A stretch of DNA of 64,000 bases from Streptosporangiaceae bacterium (GCA_035532275.1 DATKRG010000203.1:69-64068), one strand, 5' to 3'; numbered from the stretch's first letter, positions 2,381 through 45,969 are shown. Program-made: numbers and translations. Notes: a model not told the origin generated them from the sequence alone.

Positions 2381-2447
2381 GCCCGACGCGGGCGCCCACC
2401 ACAGCCCTGCTCCGCGAGAAGGAGGCCGACGTGCCGAGGAAGCCACT

Positions 2448-7106: not shown

Positions 7107-7793
7107 ATGCAGCTCATCGACATTTCGCAGGACATCTACGAGGGTATGAAGGTCTATCCCGGCCACTTGAAGACGGTGCAGTTCGACCACGCCACGCACG
7201 AGGAGACCGCGCCCCGGTTCGACAGCGGCTTTTCGTTCCAGACCACCGGGTTCATGCTCAACGACAACGGCCCGACGCACGTCGACTCCTTCTCCCACCT
7301 GGACCCGGACCCATCCGCGGAGACGATCGAGAAGATGTCGCTCGATCTGTTCTACGGCACCGCCGTGTGCCTGGACGTCACCGGCTTCAAGCCCCAGACC
7401 GACATCACGGCAGAGGACCTGGACCGGGTGGAGGCGGGCTCGCCGGTGAAGGTACGGGCCGGAGACATCGTGCTGTTCCACACCGCGACGTGGAACCGGT
7501 ACGCGGGCGACAAGCGCTACCTGTCGGAGTTCCCAGGGCTGGGAGAGTCGGCCAGCGAGTGGATCGTGCAGCGTCAGGTCAAGACGTTCGGGGTCGACAG
7601 CCCGACGCCGGACAACCCCGCGAGCACCAGCTACCCGTGTCACATGATGTGCCGCCGCGAGCACATCACCCACTACGAGAACCTGGCCAACCTCGACAAG
7701 ATCGTGAACACCCGGTTCACGTTCATCGGGTTCCCGCTCAAGCTCCGGGGTGCCCACGGCGGGCCCACACGCGCGGTGGCGCTGGTGGAGTGA
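7107..7793 (+). CDS. Cyclase family protein (kynurenine formamidase-like)
   Basis: 228 aa with GPTHVDSFSHL (HxDxxxH metal motif of the putative cyclase family). Last gene of the co-oriented operon. Confidence 0.8.
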   Translation: MQLIDISQDIYEGMKVYPGHLKTVQFDHATHEETAPRFDSGFSFQTTGFMLNDNGPTHVDSFSHLDPDPSAETIEKMSLDLFYGTAVCLDVTGFKPQTDITAEDLDRVEAGSPVKVRAGDIVLFHTATWNRYAGDKRYLSEFPGLGESASEWIVQRQVKTFGVDSPTPDNPASTSYPCHMMCRREHITHYENLANLDKIVNTRFTFIGFPLKLRGAHGGPTRAVALVE

Positions 7794-8052
7794 GTGGCCA
7801 TACGCTGCGGGCCCCGCCAGTGCACGGGACACTGCTGGTCGATGGTTCGGCCCGAATCGGGGGCGGTGACCGCGCTGGGGTCGGGGACGTTCTTCGCCCG
7901 GCGGGGTTAGCGGCGAACCAGATCTGGCGCGCTCCTGGCCTTCCGCGTATCGCTGGATTGTAGCGGCGCCCGTCGCTTTGCATGATCGGCCCGGCGTTCC
8001 CTGGTTGTTGGTGCGGTCACACGTTCTGCTGGTTTCCTCGGCAGATGGATGG

Positions 8053-8481
8053 TTACGTGCCCTCGGTGTCAGGGCGGGGCTCGATGTCGAGGTATCCGTC
8101 GTAGGCGCGGATCGTTACGAGGAAGTAGTGAAGGAAACCCTCGAGCCCTGCCAGGCCGAAGGGGTGGGGCCATGGGTCGCAGAACCAGACTGGCGCATCC
8201 CAGGAAAACTCATCGGCGCCGTCGGTCACCGTGAGGTTGACGCGGGCTAGCGCGCCGACGGTTTTCAGCCCTCCGACGTAGAGCTCTTCTGTCACAGTGC
8301 CTGTCAGCTCGATCCCGGCGAGGGGGGCGAGTTCCGCGCTCATCCGTGTCCGTAGTGCTCCGGTGTCGAGCAGGCATTCCATTGGCGCATCCGTCAGTCC
8401 CTCCAAGGCGATGCCGACGACGGGCCGCGGTGTCAGCGTGCCACCGCCCGCAGCCGGCAGGGCACGGAACGCGAACCTCAT
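8053..8481 (-). CDS. Retropepsin-like (clan AA) aspartyl protease
   Basis: 142 aa. Catalytic-type motif LLDTGALRT (D39-T-G-A) and a size typical of single-lobe retropepsin-like proteases. The start overlaps the upstream stop in ATGA (8478-8481). Confidence 0.65.
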   Translation of the reverse strand: MRFAFRALPAAGGGTLTPRPVVGIALEGLTDAPMECLLDTGALRTRMSAELAPLAGIELTGTVTEELYVGGLKTVGALARVNLTVTDGADEFSWDAPVWFCDPWPHPFGLAGLEGFLHYFLVTIRAYDGYLDIEPRPDTEGT

Positions 8482-8984
8482 TGCGGGGCCGCGCCGTTGA
8501 TGGCCTGCTCGGAGTCCGGGACGCGGAACATTGACTGCGCGCGCTGGCGGTGCTGGGCCAGCCAGGCCACGACCTCCTTGGGCGAGGGGGCGGCTACGAG
8601 CACCTCATCGTCGCGTACAGCCACCCACAGGCCGATGAAAGGGCGCAGATCCTCGACCAGGGGCTGTGGTCGTGCGGGTGGACCGGCAGCCGCAGGCGGT
8701 GATGGCGCGGTGGCTGTGGCGGCGCCCGGGTGCTGCCGCCTGGGGCCTGCCGATCTGCCGGCGGTGAAGCCAAGGCGGGTCAGGGCGCGACGCGCCTGAT
8801 GAGTTGTGAAATCGGCCCGGTCGAGCCCGGTTACCAGGGCCAGGACCTGCTTGGGTGGCCAGCGCCGTCCATTGATCACTACGAAGTGCTCCTGGATTGG
8901 TTCTGGCAGCGCGCCCTGCAGTGCTTTCTGCACGCGTAGGGCGTCAAGGTCGTACTGGTGGCCCGAGACTGTCATCGTCGGCAT
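8478..8984 (-). CDS. Hypothetical protein: N-terminal ~75-aa putative DNA-binding module, Pro/Ala linker, C-terminal DUF5678-like domain
   Basis: The real start is likely ATG 8984 (MPTMTVSGHQYDL...) within the longer ORF 8478-9638. The C-terminus FIGLWVAVRDDEVLVAAPSPKEVVAWL...MFRVP resembles DUF5678 as I remember it. The N-terminus has ...VINGRRWPPKQVLALVTGLDRADFTTHQARRALTRLGF. Confidence 0.55.
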   Translation of the reverse strand: MPTMTVSGHQYDLDALRVQKALQGALPEPIQEHFVVINGRRWPPKQVLALVTGLDRADFTTHQARRALTRLGFTAGRSAGPRRQHPGAATATAPSPPAAAGPPARPQPLVEDLRPFIGLWVAVRDDEVLVAAPSPKEVVAWLAQHRQRAQSMFRVPDSEQAINGAAPQ

Positions 8985-9149
8985 GGACGTCTCCGATCTG
9001 TAGTCTCCGCAACGTCTTCTCTGACTCGTCTCTACTGTAGGGTACTCGCCGGAGTTCCGCGACAGGCCAGTTCCCAGCCAGCGCTCCGCACTCGCCCTGC
9101 CGCCGGGGAACTCCCAGCAGCGCAGCTCCAGTCCGAACAGCCATCCTCC

Positions 9150-9802: not shown

Positions 9803-9858
9803 GACGTAGCATGGACGTGGCATGCCCGCTGTCGTGTGCCGTGTCTGGTAGGAGCAGC

Positions 9859-10756
9859 CGTGCAGAACGTGACTCTCCGTCAGCTCGAGGCCTTCCTCGC
9901 CGTCGCAGAGGAACTCCACTTCGGCCGCGCCGCCGAGCGCCTGTCTGTCTCAGCACCCTGGATGAGTCACACAGTCCGCGATCTCGAGCGGGCGCTGCGC
10001 GTCAAGTTGCTGAGCCGCACCACGCGCACGGTCGAGATGACCCCGGCGGGCCAGGTGTTCGCCGGCCTCGCCAGCCAAATCCTCACCGAACTATCGTCGG
10101 CGATCAAGACAGTGCGCAGCATGAGCGCGACACCGCGCGGAACGCTGAAGCTGGGCTACACGATCGGGGCTGGCCTAGAGGTAGTACCAAGGCTGCTGCG
10201 CACCTACCTCGAAAGAGAACCCGATGCAGGTATCGAGACCGAGGAGTTCGACTTCACCGATCCCTCAGCCGGGCTGCGGGACAACCTCGTCAACGCCGCC
10301 GTCGTGCGACCGCCGCTCGGGCTGGCGGGCCTGGTGTCAGTGGAGCTTGCCACCGAGCGGCTCGTCGCCTCTCTACCAGAGGACCATCCGCTGGCGGGCC
10401 GGGAATCACTTGGCGTCGCGGACGTGCTGCCCGAGCCGATCATCGCCGCGCCCGTCTCCCCGGGCCCGTGGCGCGACTACTGGATACTCACCGACTACCG
10501 GTCAGGACCGGCGCCGGTAGTCGCCGAGGCGAGCACCCTGGACGCGGAAATGCATCTCGTCGCCAGGGGCGTTGGACTGAGCATCACGTCCGAAGCAGTC
10601 GGGCTCTGGTACAAGCGGCCAGGCGTGACATTCGTGCCGATTCTTGACCTGCCCCCATGCTCAGTGTCACTTGCCTGGTGGCCCCAAGACACCGGCCTGG
10701 TGGCCGAGCTGGCGGCCGTCGCCAACGAGGTCAGAGCAAGAATCGCCGAGACCTGA
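9859..10756 (+). CDS. LysR family transcriptional regulator
   Basis: VQNVTLRQLEAFLAVAEELHFGRAAERLSVS... (LysR HTH) followed by a substrate-binding domain. GTG 9859 lies within ORF 9836-10756. Confidence 0.9.
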
Positions 10757-10944: not shown

Positions 10945-11427
10945 TTACTTTTGGATGAGTGGGCTGAGATCCGGCGCCTGCACCGGTCGCAGGGCCTTGG
11001 GATCAAGGCGGTCGCGCGGCATCGACTCAAGGCCCGAGCGGATGGCCAGTGCCCGGAGCACGAGGGTGGCGAGTGAACCGCCCGCAAGCAGTGCCTTGGT
11101 GTCTCCCGTGACCTGTTCGGCGAGCACCGGCAGCGGGATCGGGTTGCGCAGCGGTCCGCCGAGCATGACCAGGCAGTCATGCAGACCGGCGCCGTGCCCC
11201 TGCCGCAGGGCCGCGTCCAGCGTGACGAGCTCGATGGTGAGCCGTTTCACCGTCTGCGGCCGGTAGCTGCCGGTGATGCCGATGACCAGCCGCCGTTCGG
11301 CGTCGGTGGGCGAGTTCAGTCCGATCGAGCGGTCCAGCGCGCCGCCGGTCCGTTCCAGGTCGCGCCGGGCCGCGGCGAACAGCCGTTTCCAGCCCTCCCC
11401 GCGCAGCTCGGTCAGATCCCCAGCCAT
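10945..11427 (-). pseudogene. jetD: Wadjet JetD (TIGR02679-like), N-terminal ~160 codons only; C-terminal Toprim/nuclease half absent
   Basis: ATG 11427 lies 8 nt after the jetC stop. MAGDLTELRGEGWKRLFAAARRDLERTGGALDRSIGLNSPTDAERRLVIGITG... resembles the JetD N-terminal arm domain. The ORF stops at 10945. No continuation exists in any frame before the LysR gene end at 10756. Confidence 0.6.
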
Positions 11428-11434
11428 GGTGTCC

Positions 11435-14400
11435 TCACGCCGCTGCGGTGACCGTCCGCCGGGTGCTGGGCGAACCGAGCGCGGCGGACAGCTCGCCCGC
11501 TTCGTCGGCGAGGAGCTGTGCTCCATCCCACACCAGCAACAGCGCGCTGACGGTGTGCTCGAGGGGGGAGTGCGCCAGGTCGTAGTGCGCGGCGGCGCGG
11601 ACGGCAGCCTGGGTCGCCCACAGGTCGTAGCCGGTCATGAACAGGTCCAGATCGAACTGGGCGGCAAGGCCCATCAGTTCGCCGCGGCCAGTGTCGTCCA
11701 CCCCGGCGAACGCCTCGTCAAGCGCGAGCAGTCGCGGGGCGTGCGGATGCGCCGAGTTCAGCATCGCGTGCGCGGCGGCGAACAGCGGCAGGTGCAGTGA
11801 GACCGATTGCTCGCCGCCGGACAGCCGGCTGTGCCGGGAGCGGGTCAGCTTCTCCTCGGCGCCCCCAGGGCTGACCATCTGGAACACGAACTGCCGCCAG
11901 CGACGGTAGTCCAGCACCTGGGCCAGCAACTCTCGGTAGGGGAGTTCACGGTGCCGGGCACGAGCGGTCTTGATCTGCGCGGCGAAGTGGCCGCGCATCC
12001 GGGCGAGGGAGTCCGGGTTGAGCCGGGAGGCGTCGGCGTCCAGCAGCCCGCACACCGCTCGCTGTTCGTCGTCGAGCGCGTCCGCCAGCAGCCACCTCAC
12101 GCCGACCGTCTTGCCCGAGGACATCTTCCGGGACCGCATCTCGGTGTTCATCCGGCTGATCAGGTCCTTGGCGTCCACGGTCCGCTCGTGGATCTGCTGA
12201 GCGAGCCTGGCCAGCAGTGCGTCTTCGAGGATGCGCTGCTCGGAGTCGGTCAGCAGCAGTTGCTGGTCGCGACGAGCGGCCGCGATGCGCTCCGAGAAGG
12301 CGCCGACCGGGAGCGGGCCCTGTTCATCGGCGATGCGGACGACGATGACGCCGTCGGCACCGTCCCACTCGGGGTGGTAGTCCTGGCCGGCCGCGGCGAG
12401 CTGGGTCTGCAGATCCTCCAGCGCCCGGGTCAGCCGGGTGGTGGAGATCTTCAGCGACGTCTCGGTCGGTGTGAGGTCGCGGGTGACCTCGAGGATTGCC
12501 TCGTGCACGTCGGCTGCCGCCTGGGGCAGATCATCACCGGTCCAGTCCGCCTCCTGCGCGGGCCAGGCGAGACCCGGCGGGCATTTCAGCACGTCCAGCA
12601 GTTCCCGGGCGGCGAACGGCGCGAGACCGCGCGCGGTGGCCCGCTCCTCCGCCAAGGCGACGTCGAGGGCGCGCCTGCCGCTGGCGACCCGCTCGGCCGT
12701 GGCGCTGACAGCCTTGATGGCCTCGACCTCGGCGGCGCGGGCGGAATGCTCGGCCGACTGGGCGGCCGTGATGCCCCGCTCGGCCGTTTCGATCTGTGCC
12801 ATCACCTCGTTGGCCTCCTTGCCTACGGCGCCCCGCAGCGCAGCCAGCTTGGCGGCCTCCTCGGTGTGCCGGCGGCGGGCCTGGAGCTCGGTTTCGGCGC
12901 AGGCGCGCTCCTCGTCGGCGGCCTGTTCCAGCCGGCCCCGGGCGCCGGTGACGACGCCGCGCTGCTGTGCCTCCTCACGGCGGCGGCTGGTGAGGCTGGC
13001 GACGGCGGCCTCAAACCGCCGGGTGGCGGCCTCCACCCGGTCGGCCTGGTCCCATTCGATGGCGTGGTCGGCGGCGGCACGGCGCAGCGCCCGTTCGGTG
13101 ACGGTGCAGGCGGCCACCGACTCGTCGTAGCCGGACTGAGCGCCGTCCGCGCCCGCCCGGGCCGAGCGCAGCTCCCCGACGGCCTGGGAGTGCATGCGCA
13201 GCGCGGCGGCGATCGCGGCGGTGCGGGGGAGCGCGGCGCGCGCCTGCGCGAAGGCGGACAATGTGGCGGTCAGCCCGGTGAGCATCCGGTCGAGGCCGGT
13301 CAGCAGCTCCTCCAGCGCGGCGATCCGAGCCTCGCACTCGGCGAGGCGCGCGGCCCGGCGGCGGGCCCGGGCGGTGACTCCGATGTACTCGGCGTGGTCC
13401 TTGTGGTGCGCGCCGGCGGTGACACCGTGGGAGTAGCGGCCGTCGGCGCCGATCACGGCGGCAGCGGAGAACAACTCGCCATCCAGGGCGATGGAGGCCA
13501 GCACCGCGCCGATCCGCGTGGCAGGCACCGGGGTGTCATCCTCGGGCACCAGCACGCGGGCGAGGCTGGTGCCCGCCACCGGCGTGCCGGGGACCAGGTA
13601 GCCGTCGCTGTCCCCGGCGGTGGGCTCGTGGCCGTCCGGCGTGATCCAGGCATCGAGCATGCCGGTGGCTTCCAGTGCCGCTTCCAGCGCGGCGGCCCGC
13701 GTCTCACCGACGTCGCCGGCGAAGCGGACCAGCCGCCACAGCGGTGCGCCGCGGCGTCCCGCCCGGTCGGCAGCGCGTCCGGGGTGGGCCGGCGGCGCGT
13801 CGTCGCGCTGCGAGGCGATGCGGTCCCGCTCCTGCGCGACGCGCGCCCGTTCGGCCTGCGCGGTGGCGCGCTCGGCGCGCAGCCGCGCCTGCTCGTCACG
13901 GACGGACTGCTCGGCGGCGGCGGTCGCGCCGGCGAACACCGACTCGAGAGTGGCGGCATCCGGATCGCCGAACGCCTCGATGGTCATGCTGAGGCCCTCC
14001 GTCAGTTCCCGCATCGCCGTCTCGTCCAGCACATCGGCGTGGTTGGCCGCCCACCGTGTCAGTGCGGCCTGCGCGTCGGCGCGGGCCGCGGCCACCGTGT
14101 CGGCGGCGGCCTGTTCGGCCTGCTCGGCGGCGGTCACCGCCGCCAGCGCCCGGTCGAGCGCGAGCCTGGCCAGATCGCGGGCGTGCTCGGCCCTGCGGTG
14201 CGCCTCCAGCGCGGCCCGCACCGCGCGGACTGCTTCCAGCCGGGCGGTGACCCTGGCCCCGGCACGTTCGGCGAACCCGTCGGCCCCGGCGTCGGCGGGC
14301 TGCCAGCCGATCCCGGCCGCGGCGGCGTGATCGGCGAGTTCGGCCGCGGTGCGCGAGACCACCGACTCCAGGTCGGCGAGTAGCGCCGCGGCTTGCTCCA

Positions 14401-15490
14401 GGTCGGCGCGGGCACGGGCGGTCGCCGCACTGCGCCGGGCGAGTTCCGCGTCGGCCTCGGCGGCGTTCCGCTCGTTGGTGCGGACGAGCCGTTCAAGGTC
14501 GGCGAGCTGCTCGACCGCCTGGTAGGCGCTGCTGGACTTCAGCTGGTCGAGCCGTGCGCGCAAGCCGGCGAAAGCGTTCTCCGACTCCTCCCGGCGGGCC
14601 TGCGTCTGCACCTGCTCGGTTTCGGCGCTCGCCAGGGCCACGGTGTCGTTGGCGAGCTCGGTGCGTCGCTGCGCACTGGCGTCATGGCGGCGGGTGAGCG
14701 CGTCGGCGGCCGACCGGGCGTGGGTGCGCAGATAGGTGGTGTAGGAGGCGAGGAAGGTGCGGGTGGCCTCGTCGGCGGCAGTCAGCCCCTCCAGCGCGAT
14801 AGCGACCGCCTCCATGTCGTCGAACGAGCGGGCCGCCTCGGCGATCAGGTCGTCGTCGACCGGGCGCAGCCCGTCGGTGAGCGTGTCCGACAACTTCGCC
14901 GGGTCGAGGTTCTTGGCCAGCTGCGGCCGCCGCAGCGTCAGGATCAGGGTGAGCAGCTGTTCGTAGCGTTCCCGGCCGAGGCCGAACAACCGCTGGTCGA
15001 TGGCGGCCCGGTAATCGGTGGGGGAGGCGTGCAGGCTCGCCTCCCCGATCTCCTCGGCGAGCTGCTTGCGGGTCATGGGCCGGTCGTCGCCGGTGATGAG
15101 CGAGAAGTCCTCGCCGACCCGGCCGTCGGCGACGAAGTGCCAGCGGACCGGGGTGTCGCGGTGCTTCTGTGCGTGCAGGCCGATGCCGATGGTGACCGCC
15201 TCGCCAGTGTCGCGATGCCGCAGCTCCAGCCACACATAGCCGACGGCGTTCTCGCCGCCGCGGAACAGGAGGTTGGCCTTCATGGTCCGGTCCTCGGCGG
15301 CGAACGGGTTCAGCCGCTTCGGGTCGATCCGGCCGTCCAGCACGAACGGGAACAGAACCTCAAGAGCCTTGGTCTTCCCGGAGCCGTTCGGGCCGCGCAG
15401 GATCAGCCAGCCACCGGCGAAGCAGAACTCCTCGTCCCGGTAGTCCCACATGTTGATGATTCCGGCCCGGGCGGGTTGGAAACGTGTCAC
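11435..15490 (-). CDS. jetC: Wadjet JetC, SMC-like ABC ATPase (TIGR02680-like)
   Basis: ~1,350 aa. N-terminal Walker A LRGPNGSGKTKALE. A long Ala/Arg/Glu-rich coiled-coil middle. C-terminal LSGGEQSVSLHLPLFAAA (signature) and LLALDEAFAGVD (Walker B). GTG 15490 is preceded by GAAGGAAGG at 6 nt (alternative start 15562). Confidence 0.85.
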   Translation of the reverse strand: MTRFQPARAGIINMWDYRDEEFCFAGGWLILRGPNGSGKTKALEVLFPFVLDGRIDPKRLNPFAAEDRTMKANLLFRGGENAVGYVWLELRHRDTGEAVTIGIGLHAQKHRDTPVRWHFVADGRVGEDFSLITGDDRPMTRKQLAEEIGEASLHASPTDYRAAIDQRLFGLGRERYEQLLTLILTLRRPQLAKNLDPAKLSDTLTDGLRPVDDDLIAEAARSFDDMEAVAIALEGLTAADEATRTFLASYTTYLRTHARSAADALTRRHDASAQRRTELANDTVALASAETEQVQTQARREESENAFAGLRARLDQLKSSSAYQAVEQLADLERLVRTNERNAAEADAELARRSAATARARADLEQAAALLADLESVVSRTAAELADHAAAAGIGWQPADAGADGFAERAGARVTARLEAVRAVRAALEAHRRAEHARDLARLALDRALAAVTAAEQAEQAAADTVAAARADAQAALTRWAANHADVLDETAMRELTEGLSMTIEAFGDPDAATLESVFAGATAAAEQSVRDEQARLRAERATAQAERARVAQERDRIASQRDDAPPAHPGRAADRAGRRGAPLWRLVRFAGDVGETRAAALEAALEATGMLDAWITPDGHEPTAGDSDGYLVPGTPVAGTSLARVLVPEDDTPVPATRIGAVLASIALDGELFSAAAVIGADGRYSHGVTAGAHHKDHAEYIGVTARARRRAARLAECEARIAALEELLTGLDRMLTGLTATLSAFAQARAALPRTAAIAAALRMHSQAVGELRSARAGADGAQSGYDESVAACTVTERALRRAAADHAIEWDQADRVEAATRRFEAAVASLTSRRREEAQQRGVVTGARGRLEQAADEERACAETELQARRRHTEEAAKLAALRGAVGKEANEVMAQIETAERGITAAQSAEHSARAAEVEAIKAVSATAERVASGRRALDVALAEERATARGLAPFAARELLDVLKCPPGLAWPAQEADWTGDDLPQAAADVHEAILEVTRDLTPTETSLKISTTRLTRALEDLQTQLAAAGQDYHPEWDGADGVIVVRIADEQGPLPVGAFSERIAAARRDQQLLLTDSEQRILEDALLARLAQQIHERTVDAKDLISRMNTEMRSRKMSSGKTVGVRWLLADALDDEQRAVCGLLDADASRLNPDSLARMRGHFAAQIKTARARHRELPYRELLAQVLDYRRWRQFVFQMVSPGGAEEKLTRSRHSRLSGGEQSVSLHLPLFAAAHAMLNSAHPHAPRLLALDEAFAGVDDTGRGELMGLAAQFDLDLFMTGYDLWATQAAVRAAAHYDLAHSPLEHTVSALLLVWDGAQLLADEAGELSAALGSPSTRRTVTAAA

Positions 15491-15551
15491 GTGGAGCCTT
15501 CCTTCGCGGTCATTCTGTGATGCCGTTGGCAGGCAATGGCACCGCCGGGGC

Positions 15552-16937
15552 TCAGGACGCACCCGGCGGCGGGTTCTTGATCTGCGCGGTGACGCTGCGG
15601 TAACGGGCCAGCAGCGGCATCACCAGCACGCCGCCGTCCACCCTTGCCACCAGGCCCAGCGAGGCGAGCAACGCGACCGCCTCGGCCGCCAGACGGCCCG
15701 GGTCGGCGGCCTGCTTCTCCGCCATGCCGGCGCCGAAGTCCTCGACCAGCTTCCGCAGCTCGGCGCGCAGCCACACGTCGCCGAGGAACGGGTAGGCGGC
15801 CTCGGCGGTGCCGTCCTGCGCGTCTGATCCGGAATCGGCTCCGGTCCCCCACTCGCTGATCTCCGGCCGCCATGCCCCTCCGGCGAGCAAGTCGGCGACG
15901 CGGCCCCGGTCCGGCAGGGCCGCGTCGATCCGCTGGGCGGCTTCGGCGAGCCGTTCCGCGGCGGTGGCCGCGGGTATCCGTTCAATCCTGGAACTGTGGT
16001 AGCGCAGGTAGCCGGCAATCCGCGCGCACAGCAGCAGCGCGGCCTGCGCGACGGTGCCGGTCGACGGGAACGTCACGTCGGTGAGCCGCTGCCCGGCGTT
16101 GACCAGCGCCACGCCTTCGGCGCGCCGCTCCAGATCCAGGCCGGTGAGCCGCCCGGCATCCTCGGCGAGGCTGGCCGAGCGGAGCTGGCCGCGCAGGTCC
16201 TCGTCGACGTCGGCATAGTAGACGACCGGCTGCTCCACGACGAGCCGCCGGGCACGCCGCGCGTTCACGCGCCGCCGCGCCTCCCGCCCCTGGGCCGGTG
16301 CGGTACCGCCGCCGGGGCTGTCCAGCAGCTCGGTGACCGAGTCCAGATGCTGCAGCACCCGGCTCGGCGCGTAGATGGCGCCGACCACCTCGCGGTCGAT
16401 GTCGTAAAGCGCCTCGGCGCGTTGCGGGTCGTTGGCCCACTCGATGGCCGAGCCGTCGGCCATCCGCAGGGCGCCGCGCACCTCCAGCCAGGTGACGGCG
16501 TCCACGAACGCGTCCCGGTCGGGTTTGCGGCCGGTGTCCATGCCCAGGCCGTCGATGCGCGCGGCGTCGGCGGCGACCGCGTCGGCCAGCTCGCTGAGCG
16601 CGATCTGAGTGCCGGAGCGGCCCACCGCGGACATTGTCAGCACCAGGTAGGCGTAGCGGCGGCGGTCGAATGGCCGGCCCGCGCGGGTGAGGGCCGGGCG
16701 GGTGCCGTCCAGCGTGTCCTGCACCCGGCGCAGCCGGATGGTGTCGCCGCTGGCCAGGAGCGTGTACCCGAGGACCTCGCCGAAGTCGGTCCGCAGTTGC
16801 CTGACCCACTTGCGCACGAGCGGAAGCGTCGAGGCGTCCGGATATGACGCGGTGATCAGCGGGTGGCGCAGCACCAGCCGCGCCGCCTTCTGGTATTCGG
16901 CCAGCTCGAGCGCGTCGATGCCGGCGGCGACCCTCAT
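15552..16937 (-). CDS. jetB: Wadjet JetB (TIGR02678/DUF2398-like)
   Basis: ATG 16937 overlaps the jetA stop in ATGA. MRVAAGIDALELAEYQKAARLVLRHPLITASYPD...LVRKWVRQLRTDF... 461 aa. Position between jetA and jetC. The remainder of ORF 15552-17453 is an out-of-frame overlap with jetA. Confidence 0.8.
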   Translation of the reverse strand: MRVAAGIDALELAEYQKAARLVLRHPLITASYPDASTLPLVRKWVRQLRTDFGEVLGYTLLASGDTIRLRRVQDTLDGTRPALTRAGRPFDRRRYAYLVLTMSAVGRSGTQIALSELADAVAADAARIDGLGMDTGRKPDRDAFVDAVTWLEVRGALRMADGSAIEWANDPQRAEALYDIDREVVGAIYAPSRVLQHLDSVTELLDSPGGGTAPAQGREARRRVNARRARRLVVEQPVVYYADVDEDLRGQLRSASLAEDAGRLTGLDLERRAEGVALVNAGQRLTDVTFPSTGTVAQAALLLCARIAGYLRYHSSRIERIPAATAAERLAEAAQRIDAALPDRGRVADLLAGGAWRPEISEWGTGADSGSDAQDGTAEAAYPFLGDVWLRAELRKLVEDFGAGMAEKQAADPGRLAAEAVALLASLGLVARVDGGVLVMPLLARYRSVTAQIKNPPPGAS

Positions 16938-18469
16938 CCGGAGACCTCCACGGCCAGGCCGTCCAGATGCAGCCGGCCGCGGACCGTGTGCACGGTCGTG
17001 GACCCAGGGGCGGGCCGCAACGTGAGCCGCACCCCGTGCGCGGACCCGCTCGCCGTCCGGCTGACCGGGACCCGCGCGGACAACGCCACGTCCAGCAGGC
17101 TGAGCAGCGCCTGAGTCTCCGGCTCGTCCAGCACCCGGCCGTAGACGCCGTCGCCGGCCAGCGCCGCCGCCGCGGTGCGGCGCTGCGCGGTCGCCTTCAG
17201 CTGCTCGGCGCGCAGCCGCTGCTTCTCCTCGTCGTTGCGCTGGATCCGGCCGGGGCCGCGCAGCGCCTGGGCCTTTCCGTTGCGCACCAGCGTCCGGGAC
17301 AGCTCCACCGGCTCGGCTTCCCACCACGACAACCGGCTCGGGACCGCGTCGGGGTCCTCGTGCGCGGCTGAGACGTGCCGGGGTGCGCCGAGGCCGAACA
17401 CCGCCTGGAACAGCGCATGGGAGTCGTCGTCGGTCGGGCAGCCGGTGAACCATCGCGCCAGATGGCGCAGTTGGCTCTCCCGGCTCACCCCGCCGCGGCG
17501 CGACTCGGTGACCCGGCGCAGCAGCGCCGTGACGTTAGCGATCGCGGTGACCGTGGCGTCCTGCAGGCGTTCGGCCTCGCTGTGGCGGCCGCCGCCGAAC
17601 CACTGCACCAGGCCGCCCCAGCGCGCCCGCCAGTCCGCGACCCGTTCCTCGGCGCCGCGGAACAGCGACTCGTCGGCCTCCGCGGCGAGCCGGGCGAGGC
17701 GCTCCGCGCCGGCGGCATCCACCTCGGCGACCGCGGCGGCCAGGAGCGGCGCGAACCGGGTCAGCTCGGAATGGAACTCCCGCATGTGGGTGAGCAGCGC
17801 GTCCTTGTGCGCGAGGAACACCTCTGGCCGGGTGTCGTTGGTGCGCGCCAGATCGCCCAGCATCAGGTAGAAGCGGGCGGCGCGCTGCGCCATGTCGGCG
17901 AGTACGCCGTCCAGCCGGGACAGCTTCCGGTACACCTCGGCGGCGTCCCCGGACCGCGCCGCCTCGGCGAGCGATCGCAGGTCGGCGAGGATGTCGGGGA
18001 ACACGAGGCGGGACAGCTGGGCGTCTTCCACGCTGGCCGTCAGCACCTCTTCGACGGCCCGGAAGGCCCGGTATCCCGCCTGGGTGAACTGGTAGACGTA
18101 GTGCCGGTTGCGGTACTCGGCGAGGTTCGCGGCGCGGGTGCCGTCGTAGGAACGGTCCAGCACCTGCCATTCGGCGAGTGCGTCCAGCAGCGCCTGCACG
18201 TCGCCTCCGGCCGCCTCCGGGTGCTGCACGGCCAGTTCGCCGAGCACCTCGCTGGCGTCGGACGCGTGCATCAGCACCTGGTAGTTGGCTCGGGCCCGGT
18301 CGAAGGCGCGGAGCAGCCACAGGTACTCGTGGCGTTTCTCAGCGGCGGCGAAGTGGAACAGCCGGAGCCGGTCATCGAGGGTGAACGCGTCGATGCCGAA
18401 CGCAGCATCCTCTGCCGCCGTGTCGCGAGGAACAGAGGCGGTGCGAACGGGGGGATGACTACCGGTCAC
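16934..18469 (-). CDS. jetA: Wadjet JetA (TIGR02677/DUF2397-like)
   Basis: 511 aa, ...FHFAAAEKRHEYLWLLRAFDRARANYQVL...YRNRHYVYQFTQAGYRAFRAVEEVL... First gene of a four-gene set with the canonical order and sizes. Confidence 0.8.
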   Translation of the reverse strand: MTGSHPPVRTASVPRDTAAEDAAFGIDAFTLDDRLRLFHFAAAEKRHEYLWLLRAFDRARANYQVLMHASDASEVLGELAVQHPEAAGGDVQALLDALAEWQVLDRSYDGTRAANLAEYRNRHYVYQFTQAGYRAFRAVEEVLTASVEDAQLSRLVFPDILADLRSLAEAARSGDAAEVYRKLSRLDGVLADMAQRAARFYLMLGDLARTNDTRPEVFLAHKDALLTHMREFHSELTRFAPLLAAAVAEVDAAGAERLARLAAEADESLFRGAEERVADWRARWGGLVQWFGGGRHSEAERLQDATVTAIANVTALLRRVTESRRGGVSRESQLRHLARWFTGCPTDDDSHALFQAVFGLGAPRHVSAAHEDPDAVPSRLSWWEAEPVELSRTLVRNGKAQALRGPGRIQRNDEEKQRLRAEQLKATAQRRTAAAALAGDGVYGRVLDEPETQALLSLLDVALSARVPVSRTASGSAHGVRLTLRPAPGSTTVHTVRGRLHLDGLAVEVSG

Positions 18470-18523
18470 AAGTTCTGATCATCTCGATCATGGGGGGGTG
18501 TGGAACGGCCGGCCGACGTGATG

Positions 18524-21500
18524 TCAGTCTGCCGGATCGCCGCGGCGGATGTGAAAAGAAACGCCGTGCCGGGGCTCGCTGTCCGGTCCGCATCGTGCAA
18601 GGCCGTGCAGCGATGTCAGCACCGTCAGCGCGGCACCGCGGCTCAGGTCCTCGTGGTGGCGTTCGTTGCGCGGGGTGCGCAGGCAGCCGTAGCAGGATGT
18701 CTCCAGGCCGCAGTCACACGACGCTACCCGCCGCAGCGCGGTGGCGATCACCGTGTCGAGCGCGGCGGCGATCCGCAGCACGCTGCCCGCCCCGCCCGGG
18801 ACAGTGTCGAACAGCACCAGGCCGCTGCGGCCGTCCGCACCGGAATGCACCACCCCGTCGATGTCGCCGCGGCTGATCTCCAGCCCGTCGGCGGCGCCCT
18901 CCAGCGCCGCGTACAGGAGGGAGTGCCACTGCGCCCCGGTGTCCAGGCCGGGCGCGTCGAGCCGCAGCCGCAGGATGTCCGTCTCATAGGTGTGCGCGAG
19001 CGAGCGCCAGCGCAGCGGCCCCGTGCACGGCTTGCCGCGCAGCGGGCTGACGTGCGACTTGGGGGACCGGCCGTGGTTGGGGGCGCCCCAGCCGCACCAG
19101 TCGCAGATCAAGAACCCGGAGCCGCCCGGCCCTTCGGCCAGCGACACCAGCCGGCCGCGCGCACCGGAGTGGCACCACGCCAGCGCGCCGGTGTTGGCCT
19201 CCCAGCGGGACTCGGCGAGCTCCTCGCCAAGCGACACCACGTGCACGGCACCGTTCCAGGACCGCTGCGGCGGCACGGTGCTGGGCTTGCCGGTGCGCGG
19301 GTCGGCGACGAAGCCAAACTCCGGCACGCAGTATTCGCGGACCGGGCCGTCGGCGGGCCGCCCGCACGCGGAGCAGGCCGGCTCCAGGTCGGCGCCGCCC
19401 TCCCGGTAGTGCCGGCAGCCCCGGCACACCGTGTAGCTGCGGGTGATCAGCTCCCGGCCGGGAAGACGGTAGATGCCGCCCGAACGCCACAGCACCCCAC
19501 CAGCGATCAGCTCGGCGCCCGGCGCGTATTCGTGGATGGCCACCGACAGGTCCCGGTTCAGCTCCAGCCGGGCCCCGACACCGCTGTCGCAGTGCGCGGT
19601 GCGCAGCTCGACGGTGTCCACCGGAAACCCGTACTTCGGCAGGACGTTCCGGTTGGCCAGGTAGCCGATCAGCGGCCGACGCGTGATGGTGGCGATGCTG
19701 CGCTCGAACCGGGCCGCCAGGTCGCTGCGCCGGGACTCGAACGCCTCCGTGCGGCGCTCCTCGAACGTCACCACATCGTGGGCCAGTTCGGCACGGACCT
19801 GCTCCAGCAGTCCGCACAACCGCTCCACCCAGCTGCCGTCGTCCAGCCCGATCTGCGGCCAGGCCGACTCCGGGAGCACGGCGCGCAGCGCCGTGCCGAC
19901 CTCGGCGGGCACCGGGGTGAGGTAGCCGCGGACCGCGTCGCAGGGCGGATCGCCGCATCCGGCAGGCAGGCTCTGCTGGCCCGGGGGGACGACCCCCCGG
20001 AACCCTCCGAGGAAAAAATCCCCGGCGGTCTTCCACTCCCGGCCGCCGTTGTCCTTGCCGTCCCGGAAGAACGCCGCGAGCGCCACCGAATGCGCGTGCC
20101 GCCGGTCGATGCGCGGGTTTCCGAGCGGCACGTAGGGGGCACGGACCTGCCCGGTCAGCATCGACTCCGGCGCCTGATAACGGGACAGGTCGTGGGAGCG
20201 GCGCTGAGCGTAGGTGAGGACCAGCGCGGCGGTGCCGCTGCGACGTCCCGCCCGCCCGGCCCGCTGGATGTAGTTGGCGGTGCTGGGTGGCATGTTCCGC
20301 AGCAGCACCGCCGAGAGCGACCCGACGTCGACGCCCAGCTCGAAGGTGGTGGAGCAGCTCAGCACGTTGACCTCGCCGGCGAGGAACCGCTGCTGGATGT
20401 CGGCTGCCTCCAGGCCGGTCCACTGCGCGGTGTGCTCACGGGCCACCAGCGGCACCGGCGCTGTCCGCTGGTACAGGGCGCGGTAATGGCCGTCGTCGTC
20501 GGCACGGTCGGAGGCCAGCTCACCGGTGCAGCCCAGTGTCGGGCACACCCCGCGAAGCGCGGCCGTGGTGACTCGTCGGCACAGCGAGCACCGCCACAGG
20601 CCGTCGCCAGGGGACAGCGTGAGCCAGGTGTGATCGATCTGGTGCACCTGGCCCAGCCTGGGCAGCGCCGCCGCGTGCAGCCAGCCGTCCCTGGCAGCGG
20701 TGAGCGCCCGCCAGCACCCGGCCAGCACGTCGCGTGCGTCGGCCCCGGACGCGGGCTCGCCGAGGGCGGCCAGCAGCCGGCGCAGGTAGTCGAGCCGCTT
20801 GTTGACGCCACGGGTGGGCAGCCAGCTCAGCACCTTGAGCTTCGCCTCCGCACCGTCACCGCGGACGTAGATCGGTCCGCGCCGCGGCTCGAACATCTCG
20901 TCGGCCGGGTCGACCTCCTCCGGCATCGTGAGCGCGCCCTGCAGCCGTACCGTGCGGAGCAGTTCGGTGAGCAGCGTCGCGCACTCCTGTGCGGACAAGC
21001 CGAGATCGAGCAGCGGGGCGGGTGGCCGCCACGACGGCTCCACGCCCAGCCCGACCTGCAGCAGCCCGAGGCCTTCCAGGGACTGGCGTTCGTCGAGGGC
21101 GACCAGCTCGCGCAGCACCCAGCGGGCGGCCTCCCGGCGGCGGCCCTGCCGCGACTCCCGCCGGGAGAACACCCCGGCACGGCCGGCCGCGGCCGCGGTC
21201 TCCTCGATCAGGTCGTCCACCGTGGCGTAGGTGTCGTGGGCGGTGGCCCGCGCCAGGCCGTCCAGGATCAGCCGTCGCTGCTGCACGAGCGCGTGACTGG
21301 ACTCCAGGTAAGGGGCGAAGAACGCGGCGGCCTGCCGACTGTCGCTGAACGCGAGGAGCTTCCGGCCGCCTCCGGGCCGGTCCGCGAACTCCTCATCCGG
21401 GGGCAATGCCTGGTAGAGCGCGGTGGCCAGCACCGCCGCGGCCGCCTCATTGCCGCTCTCGAAGAGCCGCACCAGCCCGGCGCCGCGCGCGCCGCAGGCC

Positions 21501-23350
21501 AGGCACCCGTTCGGGGCGCTGGACTTGGCCGCCAGCCGCCGCACCCGCCGCAGCCCGGCGGCGGAACATCCGCACGGCGCCGTCCCCGCCGCGGCCGCGG
21601 TCACCGCGTGCAGGGCTCCGCACCGTCCGCACAGCGACGCGTCCTTGGCGGTCGCCGCCGCGGCCTGCTCCAGGATCTCGTCGTCCTCATCCACCGTCTC
21701 GGCCGGCGCGTCGAGCAGCAGCCAGGCACGGCGGTCGGGCCGCGCCGCGCGCGAGGTGAAGCGCTCACCGCCGGAGTCGCGCTCCACCGAGCCAGCCAGG
21801 TGCACCGCGCCGCACCGCTTGCAGCATCCGAACTCAAACACGGCGCCGCAGCAGTCCGGGCAGATCTCGTGCCGGGCCAGCGACACGTGCGGGCCGCCCG
21901 GCGTCAGGCAGGTGAACGCGCCCTCGGTGGCCCGGGCGAACAGGTGGTAACGGGCGGACAGCACCGGGGCGCCGGCGGCGTCGCGGATCTTCGCGCCCAC
22001 CGCGACCAGTGCGGCGAGCGCCGCCTCCGCGCGGGGACCATCCGCGTCGGCGAACACCTCAGCGGCCAGGTCGGCGAACGGCCGGGGCGAGCGCGCGAGC
22101 AGGGCACGCAGCCGCGCCATCGTCTGCTCGTGGGCGAGGATCAGCGCGGCGTCGCGACCACCAAGACCGGCGGCCGCCGGATCGTCCGCGGCGCGGCTCA
22201 GCAGCGCCGCCCCTGGATCGGCCGAGGTGCCCAGGCCGAGGTAGTCGGCGGGGCCGAGCGGCCCCCACAAAGGTCCGGCCGGGATGTCCACCCGCTGCGC
22301 GCCGACCAGATCCTGGCGTGCCGGGTCGCCGTCCACCCACTCAAAGGGCGCGTCGAACAACTTGGCGGCGAAGTCCATCACCGCCTGCGGATGGTCGCCG
22401 ACGGTGGCGCTCGTGGCGATCGCCTGGAACGTCGCGTCGTCCCGGCCGCGGCCGACGCGCTCCCGCAGCCGGCGCAGCAGCATGCCGACCTCTTCGGCCT
22501 TCGCCCCGTCGTAGACGTGCGCCTCGTCCAGCACGACGAACCGCCAGTGCCCGCCGTGCTTGCCCTCGAACAGTTCCATGTCCGCCGGGCGCAGCAACAG
22601 GTACTCCAGCATCGCGTAGTTGGTGAGCAGCAGGTGCGGCGGGCTGTCGCGCATCTCCTGGCGGCTGAGCAGTTCGTTCGGCAGCCGTGGCTCGCCCGGG
22701 TTCAGCGACTCGAACAGCGACGCGCCCTCGCCGGCGCGCTCCGGAGTGTCCCCGGTGTAGCGGCCGAAGGTGATCTGGGGCGCGTCGGCCAGCAGCCGGC
22801 GCAGCCGGCGGAGCTGATCGTTGGCGAGCGCGTTCATCGGATACAGCAGCAGCGCCCGCACCCCGGGTCCGAGCGTGCCCGCCTGGTGCTCAGCGGTCAG
22901 CGCCGACAGCACCGGCAGCAGGAAGCTCTCGGTCTTCCCTGACCCGGTGCCGGTGGCCACCACCAGGTTCCGGCCCGCGACGGCCTTCCGCAGTGCCTGC
23001 TCCTGATGGCAGTAAAGGGGCCGGTCGAGGGGCAGCGCCACACCGCCCAAGCGGGCGAACGCGGGATCCAGCACGCCCTCGCCGATCAGGTCACGCAGGC
23101 TCGCCCCGGTCCGGTAGGGCGGCGTCGCCTCAAGCAGCGGCCCCTTCGTCAGCAGCGGGCTGGCGGCGATGCAGTCGGCGAGCGCGACCGCAAGCCCGCG
23201 GTCACGGACCGGCAACAGCGACCGCAGGTAGCGCCGGTAGGTGGCGCTCAGCGCAGTGCTGGTGGCGATCGCGTCCACGGTGCAAGCCGTTCCCGAGCGA
23301 AAGGAAATGCCTCCTGGGACTGTACAGCGCCATGAGGGGCACATGCGCAC
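18524..23350 (-). CDS. druE: Very large DEAD/DEAH-box helicase with C-terminal DUF1998 (MrfA-type Zn) module; Druantia DruE-like
   Basis: Motif I VATGTGSGKTESF, motif II FVVLDEAHVY, helicase-C ELGVDVGSLSAVLL and motif VI YIQRAGRAGRR. C-terminus SCDCGLETSCYGCLRTPRNERHHEDLSRGAA. Several CxxC pairs are inserted between and within the RecA lobes. The start is uncertain (GTG 23350, ATG 23344 or GTG 23278). Confidence 0.75.
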   Translation of the reverse strand: MRMCPSWRCTVPGGISFRSGTACTVDAIATSTALSATYRRYLRSLLPVRDRGLAVALADCIAASPLLTKGPLLEATPPYRTGASLRDLIGEGVLDPAFARLGGVALPLDRPLYCHQEQALRKAVAGRNLVVATGTGSGKTESFLLPVLSALTAEHQAGTLGPGVRALLLYPMNALANDQLRRLRRLLADAPQITFGRYTGDTPERAGEGASLFESLNPGEPRLPNELLSRQEMRDSPPHLLLTNYAMLEYLLLRPADMELFEGKHGGHWRFVVLDEAHVYDGAKAEEVGMLLRRLRERVGRGRDDATFQAIATSATVGDHPQAVMDFAAKLFDAPFEWVDGDPARQDLVGAQRVDIPAGPLWGPLGPADYLGLGTSADPGAALLSRAADDPAAAGLGGRDAALILAHEQTMARLRALLARSPRPFADLAAEVFADADGPRAEAALAALVAVGAKIRDAAGAPVLSARYHLFARATEGAFTCLTPGGPHVSLARHEICPDCCGAVFEFGCCKRCGAVHLAGSVERDSGGERFTSRAARPDRRAWLLLDAPAETVDEDDEILEQAAAATAKDASLCGRCGALHAVTAAAAGTAPCGCSAAGLRRVRRLAAKSSAPNGCLACGARGAGLVRLFESGNEAAAAVLATALYQALPPDEEFADRPGGGRKLLAFSDSRQAAAFFAPYLESSHALVQQRRLILDGLARATAHDTYATVDDLIEETAAAAGRAGVFSRRESRQGRRREAARWVLRELVALDERQSLEGLGLLQVGLGVEPSWRPPAPLLDLGLSAQECATLLTELLRTVRLQGALTMPEEVDPADEMFEPRRGPIYVRGDGAEAKLKVLSWLPTRGVNKRLDYLRRLLAALGEPASGADARDVLAGCWRALTAARDGWLHAAALPRLGQVHQIDHTWLTLSPGDGLWRCSLCRRVTTAALRGVCPTLGCTGELASDRADDDGHYRALYQRTAPVPLVAREHTAQWTGLEAADIQQRFLAGEVNVLSCSTTFELGVDVGSLSAVLLRNMPPSTANYIQRAGRAGRRSGTAALVLTYAQRRSHDLSRYQAPESMLTGQVRAPYVPLGNPRIDRRHAHSVALAAFFRDGKDNGGREWKTAGDFFLGGFRGVVPPGQQSLPAGCGDPPCDAVRGYLTPVPAEVGTALRAVLPESAWPQIGLDDGSWVERLCGLLEQVRAELAHDVVTFEERRTEAFESRRSDLAARFERSIATITRRPLIGYLANRNVLPKYGFPVDTVELRTAHCDSGVGARLELNRDLSVAIHEYAPGAELIAGGVLWRSGGIYRLPGRELITRSYTVCRGCRHYREGGADLEPACSACGRPADGPVREYCVPEFGFVADPRTGKPSTVPPQRSWNGAVHVVSLGEELAESRWEANTGALAWCHSGARGRLVSLAEGPGGSGFLICDWCGWGAPNHGRSPKSHVSPLRGKPCTGPLRWRSLAHTYETDILRLRLDAPGLDTGAQWHSLLYAALEGAADGLEISRGDIDGVVHSGADGRSGLVLFDTVPGGAGSVLRIAAALDTVIATALRRVASCDCGLETSCYGCLRTPRNERHHEDLSRGAALTVLTSLHGLARCGPDSEPRHGVSFHIRRGDPAD

Positions 23351-23359
23351 GGCTCAAAG

Positions 23360-25246
23360 TCAACCGGACAGCCACGGGTCGGCGGTCGGCGCCGAAGCGC
23401 TGATCCGGGCGATCACCGCGGTCCGCGCGCCGACGGTGATCCGCAGCTCCGCGCCACCGTGGGCGCTCACCGTGTCCAGCATCCGCCGCAACGGATACCC
23501 GCCCCGCTTCGAAGGCTCCAGCACCTGCACGACCCCGCACGCGGCGACCACATCGATGGGCGGGTCGCCGGCGGCCCCGGGCAGGTCCAGGCGCAGCGCG
23601 CCACCGCGGATCAGGTCCGTCGTCTCCAGCGGCAGCGGCCCGAGGCTGTGCCAGGCCGTGGGGGCTTCCCCACTGCCTGGTTCGGGCTGGATCCGTATCC
23701 GGCAGTGCGGCGGGGTGACCCGCAGCGGCAGCACGACCGGGCCCGCCACACACGCCACCTCGATCCCGGTGGCCTGCGCCGGGAGCGTCGCCGCGCAGGG
23801 CGAGACGGTCATTCCGGGCGCGGGCGAAAGCACCGCCTCGGCCGTCTCCAGACCCTCCTCACCTGTCAATCGCAGCGCGGGCGAGTAGCCAACGTCCAGG
23901 CCCTCGGCCACGGCTACCACACGGCGCAGCCCGGAGGCGGGCGCCGTGCCCAGCGCGGTCACGGTCACCACCAGCTCGCCGAGCACCGGACGGGGCGCCC
24001 GCTCCCACAGGCGATCCGGATCCCAGCGATCCCCATTCGTCTCGACCGCCCCCAGGACCGGGCCGGAGCCCGGCCGCCGCACTTCGACCCGCCACCGGAC
24101 CTCGCCGGCGGGCAGCCGCACCATCGGCAGCGTTCCGAAGACTGCAAGCCCCTCCGTTGTGTGGATCCCCGGTACCGGGGCGCCCGTCACCAGCCGCGGT
24201 TTCCACCGACTGCGGACCGGGCGCCGCCGCGGCGCGTCCTCGCCCGCGGGCTCCAGTTCCAGCCAGGCCACTCCGGACAGGTCCAGCTGGACCAGCCGCC
24301 AGCCATTCCAGGTGAGCGGCAGCCTGCTCTCCACCAGGACCTGCGGCGCGGTGTCGGCGCGCAGCGCCCGGTCCTCCGGGTAGACCAGCCAAACGGTCTC
24401 GGGCGGCAGCACCATCCCGATGGGCTCACCGTCAGCGTGGAAGGCCAAGAGCGGATTCGCAGGATCGGTGACCTCGTCCGGAGACATTGGGGTCCAGGTT
24501 CCGGCATCGTCTCGGTCACGATCGGTGTCGGGGTCCGCGGCGCGGGTCAGCACGCCCCGCCCGAACGGATCGAGCCGGGGCGGCGGCCCTCGGCCCGGTC
24601 CGGGGTGGGCGGCCGTGACCCTCTGGGCCGCGTCGATGATGCGGCGCGGCAGGGACAGCGCCACCAGGTCCTCGGCGGCGGGGGGTTCATCGTCCTCGGT
24701 GAGCAGCTCCATGAGCGCACGGCAGCGTTCGACGAACCCGGCGCCCGACCGCAGGCGCAGCAGCGCGGCGACCGCGGGATCGAGCGCGGCCAGCTCCTGC
24801 TCCGGGGCTCCGGTACCGGCCAGCCACAGGAACTGCGGCAGGGACGGCGCGGTCACCGCCGCATGGGCGAGCACCGTCTCACGCGGGTCGCCCGCCAGGG
24901 CTGGGACGCCCAACGCCGCGAGTGAGCCAAGGAACGCCTCGCTCCAGTCAGCGGCGGAGCGCTTGGTCGGGCGCGATGCAGTCGCCCGGTGCCAGGCCGG
25001 CCAGACCTTCCCGTTCTTGTCGTGGTGAGCCGTGATCTGCGCCACGGCGACCACGACGCAGGCCGGCCACCGGCGGCTCAGTACTGCCGGCGGCTCGGGC
25101 TGGGAAAGTTCTCCCAGTGCCTTTGCCGCCGCGTCCAGCATCTCGGGTTCCATGTCGAGTGTCCCGGCCGGCTCTCCGGCCGCGAGATGCCGACGCCAGC
25201 CGGGCTCGAGAAGGTCGAGCAGCGTGCCCGTTGGCGGCCCGCTCAT
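23360..25246 (-). CDS. Hypothetical 629-aa protein, candidate helicase partner (DruH-like by position only)
   Basis: ATG 25246 is preceded by GAAGGGGG at 5 nt. The stop lies 9 nt before the helicase ORF. I recognise no catalytic or binding motif. The C-terminal half looks like repeated beta-rich modules. The longer ORF to 25510 would read antisense through a RelE fragment. Confidence 0.5.
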   Translation of the reverse strand: MSGPPTGTLLDLLEPGWRRHLAAGEPAGTLDMEPEMLDAAAKALGELSQPEPPAVLSRRWPACVVVAVAQITAHHDKNGKVWPAWHRATASRPTKRSAADWSEAFLGSLAALGVPALAGDPRETVLAHAAVTAPSLPQFLWLAGTGAPEQELAALDPAVAALLRLRSGAGFVERCRALMELLTEDDEPPAAEDLVALSLPRRIIDAAQRVTAAHPGPGRGPPPRLDPFGRGVLTRAADPDTDRDRDDAGTWTPMSPDEVTDPANPLLAFHADGEPIGMVLPPETVWLVYPEDRALRADTAPQVLVESRLPLTWNGWRLVQLDLSGVAWLELEPAGEDAPRRRPVRSRWKPRLVTGAPVPGIHTTEGLAVFGTLPMVRLPAGEVRWRVEVRRPGSGPVLGAVETNGDRWDPDRLWERAPRPVLGELVVTVTALGTAPASGLRRVVAVAEGLDVGYSPALRLTGEEGLETAEAVLSPAPGMTVSPCAATLPAQATGIEVACVAGPVVLPLRVTPPHCRIRIQPEPGSGEAPTAWHSLGPLPLETTDLIRGGALRLDLPGAAGDPPIDVVAACGVVQVLEPSKRGGYPLRRMLDTVSAHGGAELRITVGARTAVIARISASAPTADPWLSG

Positions 25247-45964: not shown

Positions 45965-45969
45965 GGAGC

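Follow-up and report, generated by a model that had tools for sequence, protein, structure and literature searches.

The Druantia type III systems pair a large helicase, DruE, with a second protein, DruH, and include the closest described relatives of the locus reported here, a helicase gene and its upstream partner in a 64,000-nucleotide stretch of DNA from a Streptosporangiaceae bacterium (GCA_035532275.1, DATKRG010000203.1:69-64068; hereafter the window). In subtype III-A, known from E. coli and P. aeruginosa (PDB 9TU7-9TUD), DruE has been shown to be a 3'-to-5' helicase that engages single-stranded DNA (ssDNA) tails or forks, and it carries two PLD nuclease domains. The III-A DruH has a helical N-domain followed by an immunoglobulin (Ig)-like array and a C-terminal helical domain. 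The C-terminal domain docks on the DruE stalk in P. aeruginosa, and in E. coli it forms an ssDNA/ATP pocket together with Ig5, its deletion abolishing defence. In P. aeruginosa, the N-terminal domain of DruH carries a proposed 3'-5' exonuclease site or sensor surface. The compact, nuclease-less form of DruE has been named subtype III-B (PMC12458937; bioRxiv 10.64898/2026.05.13.724758). The III-B pair of M. smegmatis, a DruE of 1,667 amino acids (aa) (MSMEG_1254) with a 1,132-aa DruH (MSMEG_1253), is experimentally active against phage: it blocks phage DNA circularisation and replication and requires contact between DruH and DruE, with interface residues R410 and E651 and essential DruH C-terminal residues E842, R864/865, E1096/1099 and D1108 (PMC13316683). 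Anti-phage defence that depends on both genes is established for long-DruH systems only.

Wadjet systems recognise and cleave small circular DNA. Druantia III also occurs in the Zorya II–Druantia III–ARMADA II arrays of E. coli, in which synergy via shared DNA intermediates has been demonstrated experimentally (PMC12458937, PMC13192584). The III-B form of DruE, type II Wadjet, and the ability of Druantia III to travel and synergise with other systems are thus established. What is new in the window and its relatives is a natural DruH without the C-terminal domain, the near-obligate linkage of this DruH to type II Wadjet, and the recurrent loss of JetD within the resulting cassette.

An earlier note on the window had described two co-oriented genes, read as a Druantia type III-like two-gene system whose mechanism is poorly understood. 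Both open reading frames (ORFs) are present, on the minus strand, but the jetABCD genes of a type II Wadjet that follow them had been overlooked, and the remark on mechanism is dated by five papers or preprints from 2026 on type III mechanisms. The two genes make up the 5' end of a cassette of six genes, short-DruH–DruE–JetA2–JetB2–JetC2–JetD2, laid out as follows.

23360..25246, minus strand: short-DruH gene, 628 aa plus stop codon
18524..23350, minus strand: DruE gene, compact III-B form, 1608 aa as the maximal ORF, conserved part from the GTG at 23278
16934..18469, minus strand: JetA2 (DUF2397/TIGR02677), from PADLOC, Pfam and NCBIfam
15552..16937, minus strand: JetB2 (DUF2398/TIGR02678), 461 aa, from PADLOC and NCBIfam
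11435..15562, minus strand: JetC2, SMC-like ATPase (TIGR02680), intact, from PADLOC and NCBIfam
10945..11526, minus strand: JetD2 remnant, 193-aa ORF, from matches to the JetD of a relative
22931..22957, minus strand: DruE motif I (Walker A), ATGTGSGKT, aa 132-140
22517..22534, minus strand: DruE motif II, VLDEAH, aa 273-278
20243..20266, minus strand: DruE motif VI, QRAGRAGR, aa 1029-1036
18683..18718, minus strand: four-Cys cluster of the DruE MZB/DUF1998 module, CDCG (aa 1545-1548) and CYGC (aa 1553-1556)
DruE aa 1562-1569: NERHHEDL

The identities of the short DruH and DruE and the existence of the cassette are, taken together, held with high confidence. We favour by a modest measure the fuller statement that a derived Druantia III-B module is carried in a six-gene cassette with a type II Wadjet and acts by the mechanism proposed below.

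The Wadjet genes were recognised from end-to-end profile matches, and they stand in the canonical order with overlapping genes, as in known type II systems. JetA2 scored 555 bits against PADLOC (profile positions 5-509 of 518), JetB2 534 bits with near-complete profile coverage, and JetC2 1297 bits (positions 11-1357 of 1361); TIGR02677, TIGR02678 and TIGR02680 were all above their cut-offs for the respective proteins. The genes of the cassette are tightly spaced. JetA2 starts 54 nt past the DruE stop codon, a gap that reaches ~180 nt elsewhere, and the ATG of JetB2 overlaps the stop codon of JetA2 (ATGA). Unlike other type II Wadjet operons, this one is preceded by short-DruH–DruE throughout its clade, and its JetD is a remnant here and has repeatedly been lost in relatives.

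To determine how widely the arrangement is conserved, DruE was searched in one genome per species (GTDB), yielding 74 loci. JetA adjoins DruE in 36/36 genome loci in which DruE is ~68% identical or more and the sequence continues beyond it. JetB and JetC are present in every genome cassette locus that reaches that far, JetD usually in the longer ones, and the short DruH is co-conserved with DruE in the genome loci that extend upstream of DruE. A metagenome scan with the partner family gave the same picture: DruE follows the short DruH in 64 of the 65 loci with room for it, as the co-conservation check suggested in the earlier note would have it, with JetA in 30/31 and JetC in 21/21. Homologues of the short DruH at 52-80% identity occur in the same gene arrangement with different upstream genes. 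This order, short-DruH–DruE and then jetABC(D), sets the clade apart from stand-alone two-gene III-B systems, and no Jet genes were found within 10 kb in any of the 29 complete loci with a long DruH. We found no description of a link between DruE or DUF1998 and Wadjet in the searchable literature, outside which most subscription journals fall, or in the supplements of the YprA-family survey.

The lone metagenome locus without JetA (L148) has a transposase-like ORF pair directly after DruE (7322..9063, judged by eye from the translation), and then the contig ends. In another locus (L059, 1579..5815), a 4.1-kb insertion parts DruE from JetA. The DruE-jetA junction tolerates insertions, and perhaps attracts them. 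A third locus (L107) carries a second, divergent and stand-alone type II Wadjet at 138..4584 (minus strand), divergently upstream of its short-DruH gene, whose JetA, JetB and JetC are 45%, 41% and 42% identical to the cassette copies. Given this second system beside the cassette, the cassette-linked Wadjet is not simply 'the' Wadjet of that genome.

The helicase motifs quoted by the earlier note are all present in the protein, and its assignment as DruE-like was borne out by the PADLOC profiles, which gave 565 bits for DruE3 and 550 bits for DruE1 (DruE E-value 1e-169). The next families, SngC, DpdJ, BrxH and DrmA, scored 93 bits or less (DpdJ 92, BrxH 85, DrmA 53). Pfam placed DEAD at residues 115-321, Helicase_C at 981-1037 and MZB/DUF1998 (PF09369) at 1480-1557, the last scoring 49 bits (cut-off 24). 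The superfamily 2 (SF2) core of DruE is represented by motifs I, II and VI and by the DEAD and Helicase_C matches. The best match among solved structures was PDB 9tu7 (E 4e-77, 263 bits), which is E. coli DruE according to a 2026 preprint; MrfA/YprA (6znp) matched at 1e-16, and Lhr (5v9x) was likewise weak.

The window protein shares with the III-A enzymes the helicase core, zinc modules and MZB. Its alignment to the 2108-residue E. coli chain ends at about residue 1720, leaving ~1720-2108 unmatched, and positions 1675-2055 of the PADLOC DruE profile have no counterpart in it. Since the alignment ends there and the protein stops ~50 aa beyond the MZB/DUF1998 zinc module, the two PLD nuclease domains of III-A DruE are absent. 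The window helicase is therefore a DruE of the compact, nuclease-less kind, like the III-B proteins of ~1,550-1,670 aa that end at MZB. In a neighbour-joining tree of 59 DruE sequences (midpoint rooting, no support values), it sits in the III-B branch with M. smegmatis, Nocardia, Streptomyces and other loci that carry a long DruH. The earlier call of a Druantia III-like pair thus stands as DruE with a true DruH homologue, refined to subtype III-B with a truncated DruH. Neither outcome that the earlier note named as refuting it was observed: the helicase scores far higher with DruE than with MrfA or Lhr, and the upstream gene is co-conserved with it.

The start codons of both genes were examined by comparison with homologues. 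The maximal short-DruH ORF reaches 25510 (716 aa), but its homologues (~120 among the matches listed) are mostly 620-670 aa long and cover the query from residue 1, so the start at 25246 is correct; this is the start chosen by the earlier note, whose length of 629 aa counts the stop codon. Alignments of DruE with its relatives in other genera begin only at residue ~25, the site of a GTG codon (23278), and the real DruE may therefore be ~1584 aa long. The spacing of 9 nt previously reported between the two genes holds for the maximal DruE ORF and becomes 81 nt if the GTG is the start.

The partner had been assigned by position only, and profile searches still recognise nothing in it. The PADLOC DruH profiles did not match it even at E<=10, Pfam and NCBIfam gave no match, a plasmid collection held no match, and searching PDB sequences with the single protein and with two family profiles returned only chance matches (E>0.05). 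In this respect the partner differs from the III-A proteins, as it has no detectable similarity to III-A DruH profiles or PDB chains. The DruH profiles of PADLOC-DB v2.0.0, however, also miss five full-length actinobacterial DruH-like proteins (the upstream ORFs of L025, L038, L063, L068 and L070). The absence of a match thus reflects incomplete coverage by the profile set and is no argument against homology; of the profile check proposed earlier, the DruE half succeeded and the DruH half was uninformative.

Pairwise and profile-profile comparison did connect the partner to DruH. In BLASTP, residues 10-615 aligned to residues 18-695 of a 1106-aa DruH-like protein with 32% identity (E 3e-74), and hhalign matched the short family to the long DruH family of mycobacteria and nocardiae with 99.9% probability (E 8e-33, positions 53-696 of 1139). 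One member of that long family is a protein of 1,125 aa from M. smegmatis MKD8, encoded directly upstream of a 1,541-aa DruE. An exhaustive profile search of 1.84 billion representatives recovered 348 relatives of the short DruH, mostly 1,000-1,180 aa long and matched only at their residues ~340-700. In the 29 loci with DruE at 48-63% identity (from Streptomyces, Nocardiopsis, Planomonospora alba, Haloechinothrix, Pseudonocardia and 'Nocardia globerula'), the upstream ORF is usually ~1,000-1,180 aa long, and in 27/29 its first ~700 residues align to the short DruH. By these alignments, the partner is a truncated homologue of the ~1,100-aa actinobacterial DruH, a co-oriented upstream gene of the same family and from the same host phylum as in known III-B pairs.

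Structure prediction showed which part is missing. The AlphaFold2 (AF2) model of the short DruH comprises a helical N-domain (aa ~9-213), a disordered linker (215-253) and a beta-rich Ig-like array (254-616), with no C-terminal helical domain. The model of a long DruH (pLDDT 85) comprises helical (3-244), beta-rich (263-794) and helical (805-1117) parts, the same plan as that of DruH solved by cryo-electron microscopy. At 628 aa, the window protein retains the helical N-domain and the greater part of the Ig-like array. Missing from it are the final Ig-like domain(s) and, in its entirety, the C-terminal helical domain, which III-A DruH uses for docking on the DruE stalk and for building the ssDNA/ATP pocket. 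In the structural check suggested in the earlier note, Foldseek searches of the PDB (entries released up to 8 April 2026) with both models gave only generic Ig, Fn3 and macroglobulin arrays (TM<0.2), and DruH 9TUD was not among the matches. By residue number, the M. smegmatis interface residues R410 and E651 fall within the region kept by the short DruH, which is an approximate region only, as mapping with a fixed offset onto the analysed sequences failed; the mismatch in numbering probably reflects a different strain allele or start codon.

Two observations concern the wider DruH family. In one subclade (L017, L019, L064 and others; Acrocarpospora, Nonomuraea), the short DruH is only ~480-500 aa long, and the stretch matching residues ~148-210 of the window protein, which takes in the linker and the end of the helical domain, is missing. 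In M. smegmatis MKD8 (CP027541.1), the long-DruH/DruE pair is followed by a gene for a 1,033-aa PLDc_2-DEAD/ResIII-Helicase_C-DUF3427 protein (L081, 16172..19273) and preceded by two transposases, surroundings that look like a small defence island.

In the DruE tree, the cassette loci form one clade nested in the long-DruH, Wadjet-free III-B radiation, with Planomonospora alba, whose DruH is long and which lacks Wadjet, as their sister. Because the cassette loci are a single clade among long-DruH systems, the truncation of DruH and the linkage to Wadjet appear to have a single, common origin. Sequences upstream of the cassette (3.7 kb) are unrelated in 27/27 comparable loci, even within one genus, and divergence from the window copy is correlated among DruE, partner, JetA and JetC (r 0.96-0.98). 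These two results together indicate that the six genes move and evolve as one unit. The short DruH is intact in all loci, with a ratio of non-synonymous to synonymous substitution (dN/dS) of 0.4-0.55, compared with 0.14-0.23 for DruE and 0.2-0.4 for JetA/JetC. Like the arrays of E. coli, the cassette is a case of Druantia III co-mobilised with another DNA-targeting system; it differs in having an SMC-type Wadjet as the companion, in another phylum and subtype. The association is near-obligate here, compared with 32-46% in the E. coli arrays, and it coincides with the loss of a DruH domain.

The last gene of the cassette has decayed in the window. What remains of JetD2 corresponds to residues 2-118 and 190-241 of a relative 450 aa long; it has suffered an in-frame internal deletion and the loss of its Toprim half, and TIGR02679 gives it 25 bits against a cut-off of 196. 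As JetD is a remnant, Wadjet cleavage has been lost in the window, and the locus would appear from its genes to retain at most short-DruH–DruE and an intact JetABC. JetD is absent in seven related loci (L008, L012, L020, L046, L048, L057 and L072) and kept in 21. The loci without JetD have differing break points and downstream sequences and are scattered in the DruE tree, which indicates independent losses in at least seven relatives; no common gene that replaces JetD was found in them. Their JetA, JetB and JetC are intact, with dN/dS of 0.2-0.4, no different from JetD-bearing pairs, although this is a weak test, as most of the divergence predates the losses. In the window, a convergent gene for a LysR-family regulator (9836..10756, plus strand) abuts the JetD remnant.

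Based on these observations and on the biochemistry of the described systems, we propose a mechanism for the ancestral cassette. Driven by ATP, DruE would load on invading DNA at ssDNA tails or forks and act there as a 3'-to-5' helicase, with the short DruH held to it via the Ig-like region. The short DruH would supply the activity of its N-terminal domain, and the module would have no other nuclease. Since the module lacks both the PLD nuclease and the DruH C-terminal domain, we hypothesize that Wadjet supplied the destruction of DNA: JetABC would loop-extrude circular invader DNA and JetD would cut it. DruE and the short DruH could then act at the ends or gaps so created, or on intermediates of replication beyond the handling of Wadjet, and their action would prevent re-circularisation and replication. 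Functional coupling of the Druantia module with Wadjet, as judged from gene content and co-inheritance, is plausible and falls just short of an even call.

Several points weigh against this proposal. JetD, the supposed effector, is a remnant in the window and absent in seven relatives, a poor fit to the idea that Wadjet supplies the nuclease. The cassette is known from its genes, and the case for coupling is drawn from co-inheritance and from its coincidence with the truncation of DruH, while defence systems often travel together without interacting. The gap between DruE and JetA could hold a separate promoter. A comparison of cassette and non-cassette forms of DruE found no cassette-specific indels or fixed residues. 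The tree on which the single origin is read has no support values and leaves out the III-B reference GIH50614.1. Homology of actinobacterial to proteobacterial DruH is seen as shared architecture only, profile and PDB sequence searches being empty, and the published roles of DruH conflict (exonuclease, ssDNA/ATP binder or sensor).

The alternative that survives best is that the two systems, a type II Wadjet and a variant of Druantia III-B, are independent neighbours, captured once side by side in a small mobile defence island and co-transferred ever since, with the DruH loss unrelated to Wadjet and with one system acting on phage DNA and the other on plasmids. We regard this as a realistic, if minority, possibility. 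Each module resembles a known self-sufficient system, and separate systems are commonly grouped in defence islands or conserved arrays. DruE and jetA have non-coding sequence between them, insertion sequences or other insertions are tolerated there in two loci, the Druantia genes stay intact despite the loss of JetD, and DruE has no changes specific to the cassette. Mere neighbours would be hard to reconcile, however, with an order and orientation that are invariant in the 36 genome loci and in all but one of the metagenome loci despite unrelated flanks, a linkage tighter than that reported for Zorya II and Druantia III. The truncation moreover removes a domain essential in every DruH studied, yet the short gene is intact, constrained and confined to the Wadjet-linked clade, and the second, divergent Wadjet II beside the cassette of L107 also speaks against this reading.

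It is also conceivable, though rather unlikely, that the short DruH, DruE and JetABC form one integrated machine, in which JetABC would find or topologically trap foreign DNA and DruE with the short DruH would be the processing or effector arm. If true, neither the DruH C-terminal domain nor, in many lineages, the JetD nuclease would be needed. This would account both for the loss of the C-terminal domain exactly at the gain of Wadjet and for the independent JetD deletions in at least seven relatives that keep JetABC intact and constrained.

That the locus is a decaying remnant, with a crippled DruH, a JetD pseudogene and no remaining defence in this genome, seems improbable. The 193-aa JetD with its internal deletion and missing Toprim half would fit such decay, as would the need for the DruH C-terminal domain in E. 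coli defence, the essential C-terminal residues in M. smegmatis, and a dN/dS of the short DruH above that of the other genes. That ratio is nevertheless below 1, and the length of the short DruH and many invariant residues are conserved down to 35% identity in more than 100 loci of several genera. DruE, JetA, JetB and JetC are full length against their profiles, and a dead gene would not survive transfer into 27 different genomic contexts.

A housekeeping repair helicase of the MrfA/YprA or Lhr type beside an unrelated gene can be dismissed as very improbable: DEAD, Helicase_C and MZB are common to MrfA (the SF2 core and MZB module of MrfA/MrfB, or YprA/YprB, being the evolutionary root of DruE) and weak matches to 6znp, 5v9x and TIGR03817 exist, but MrfA scores 62 bits and the DruE profiles 565 bits, TIGR03817 reaches 141 against a cut-off of 874, the protein of 1,584-1,608 aa is twice the size of MrfA (~750 aa) with large inserted domains, including ~650 aa between the RecA halves, no MrfB-type exonuclease is adjacent, and the gene lies between a co-conserved DruH homologue and Wadjet in a defence locus that moves among genomic positions.

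The derived III-B module with its Wadjet is of interest as the role of DruH is the main open point of Druantia III, the 2026 studies disagreeing on that role and on which domain matters. The clade is a natural experiment, in which DruH has lost the C-terminal domain found essential elsewhere, only where Wadjet is attached. Whether Wadjet compensates for this loss bears on the roles of the DruH domains and on whether SMC-type anti-plasmid and helicase-type anti-phage systems share DNA intermediates. There is also a practical consequence: the PADLOC 2.0.0 profiles examined detect neither the short nor the long actinobacterial DruH, and should a Druantia III call depend on finding DruH as well as DruE, in line with the definition of the type, III-B systems in Actinomycetota would go uncalled.

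Further features of the window were recorded. A 1480-aa ORF at 18500..22942 (plus strand), antisense over druE, is best read as a high-G+C shadow ORF and no real gene. No tRNA genes were found in the 64-kb window, and scans for promoter and terminator consensus sequences gave nothing above shuffled expectation. The region 44000..58000 has a G+C content of 60-64%, compared with 70-75% elsewhere in the window, and encodes an M24 peptidase, a sugar-type ABC transporter (binding protein, ATPase and permease), a zinc dehydrogenase and an LVIVD-repeat protein; horizontal acquisition is a possibility.

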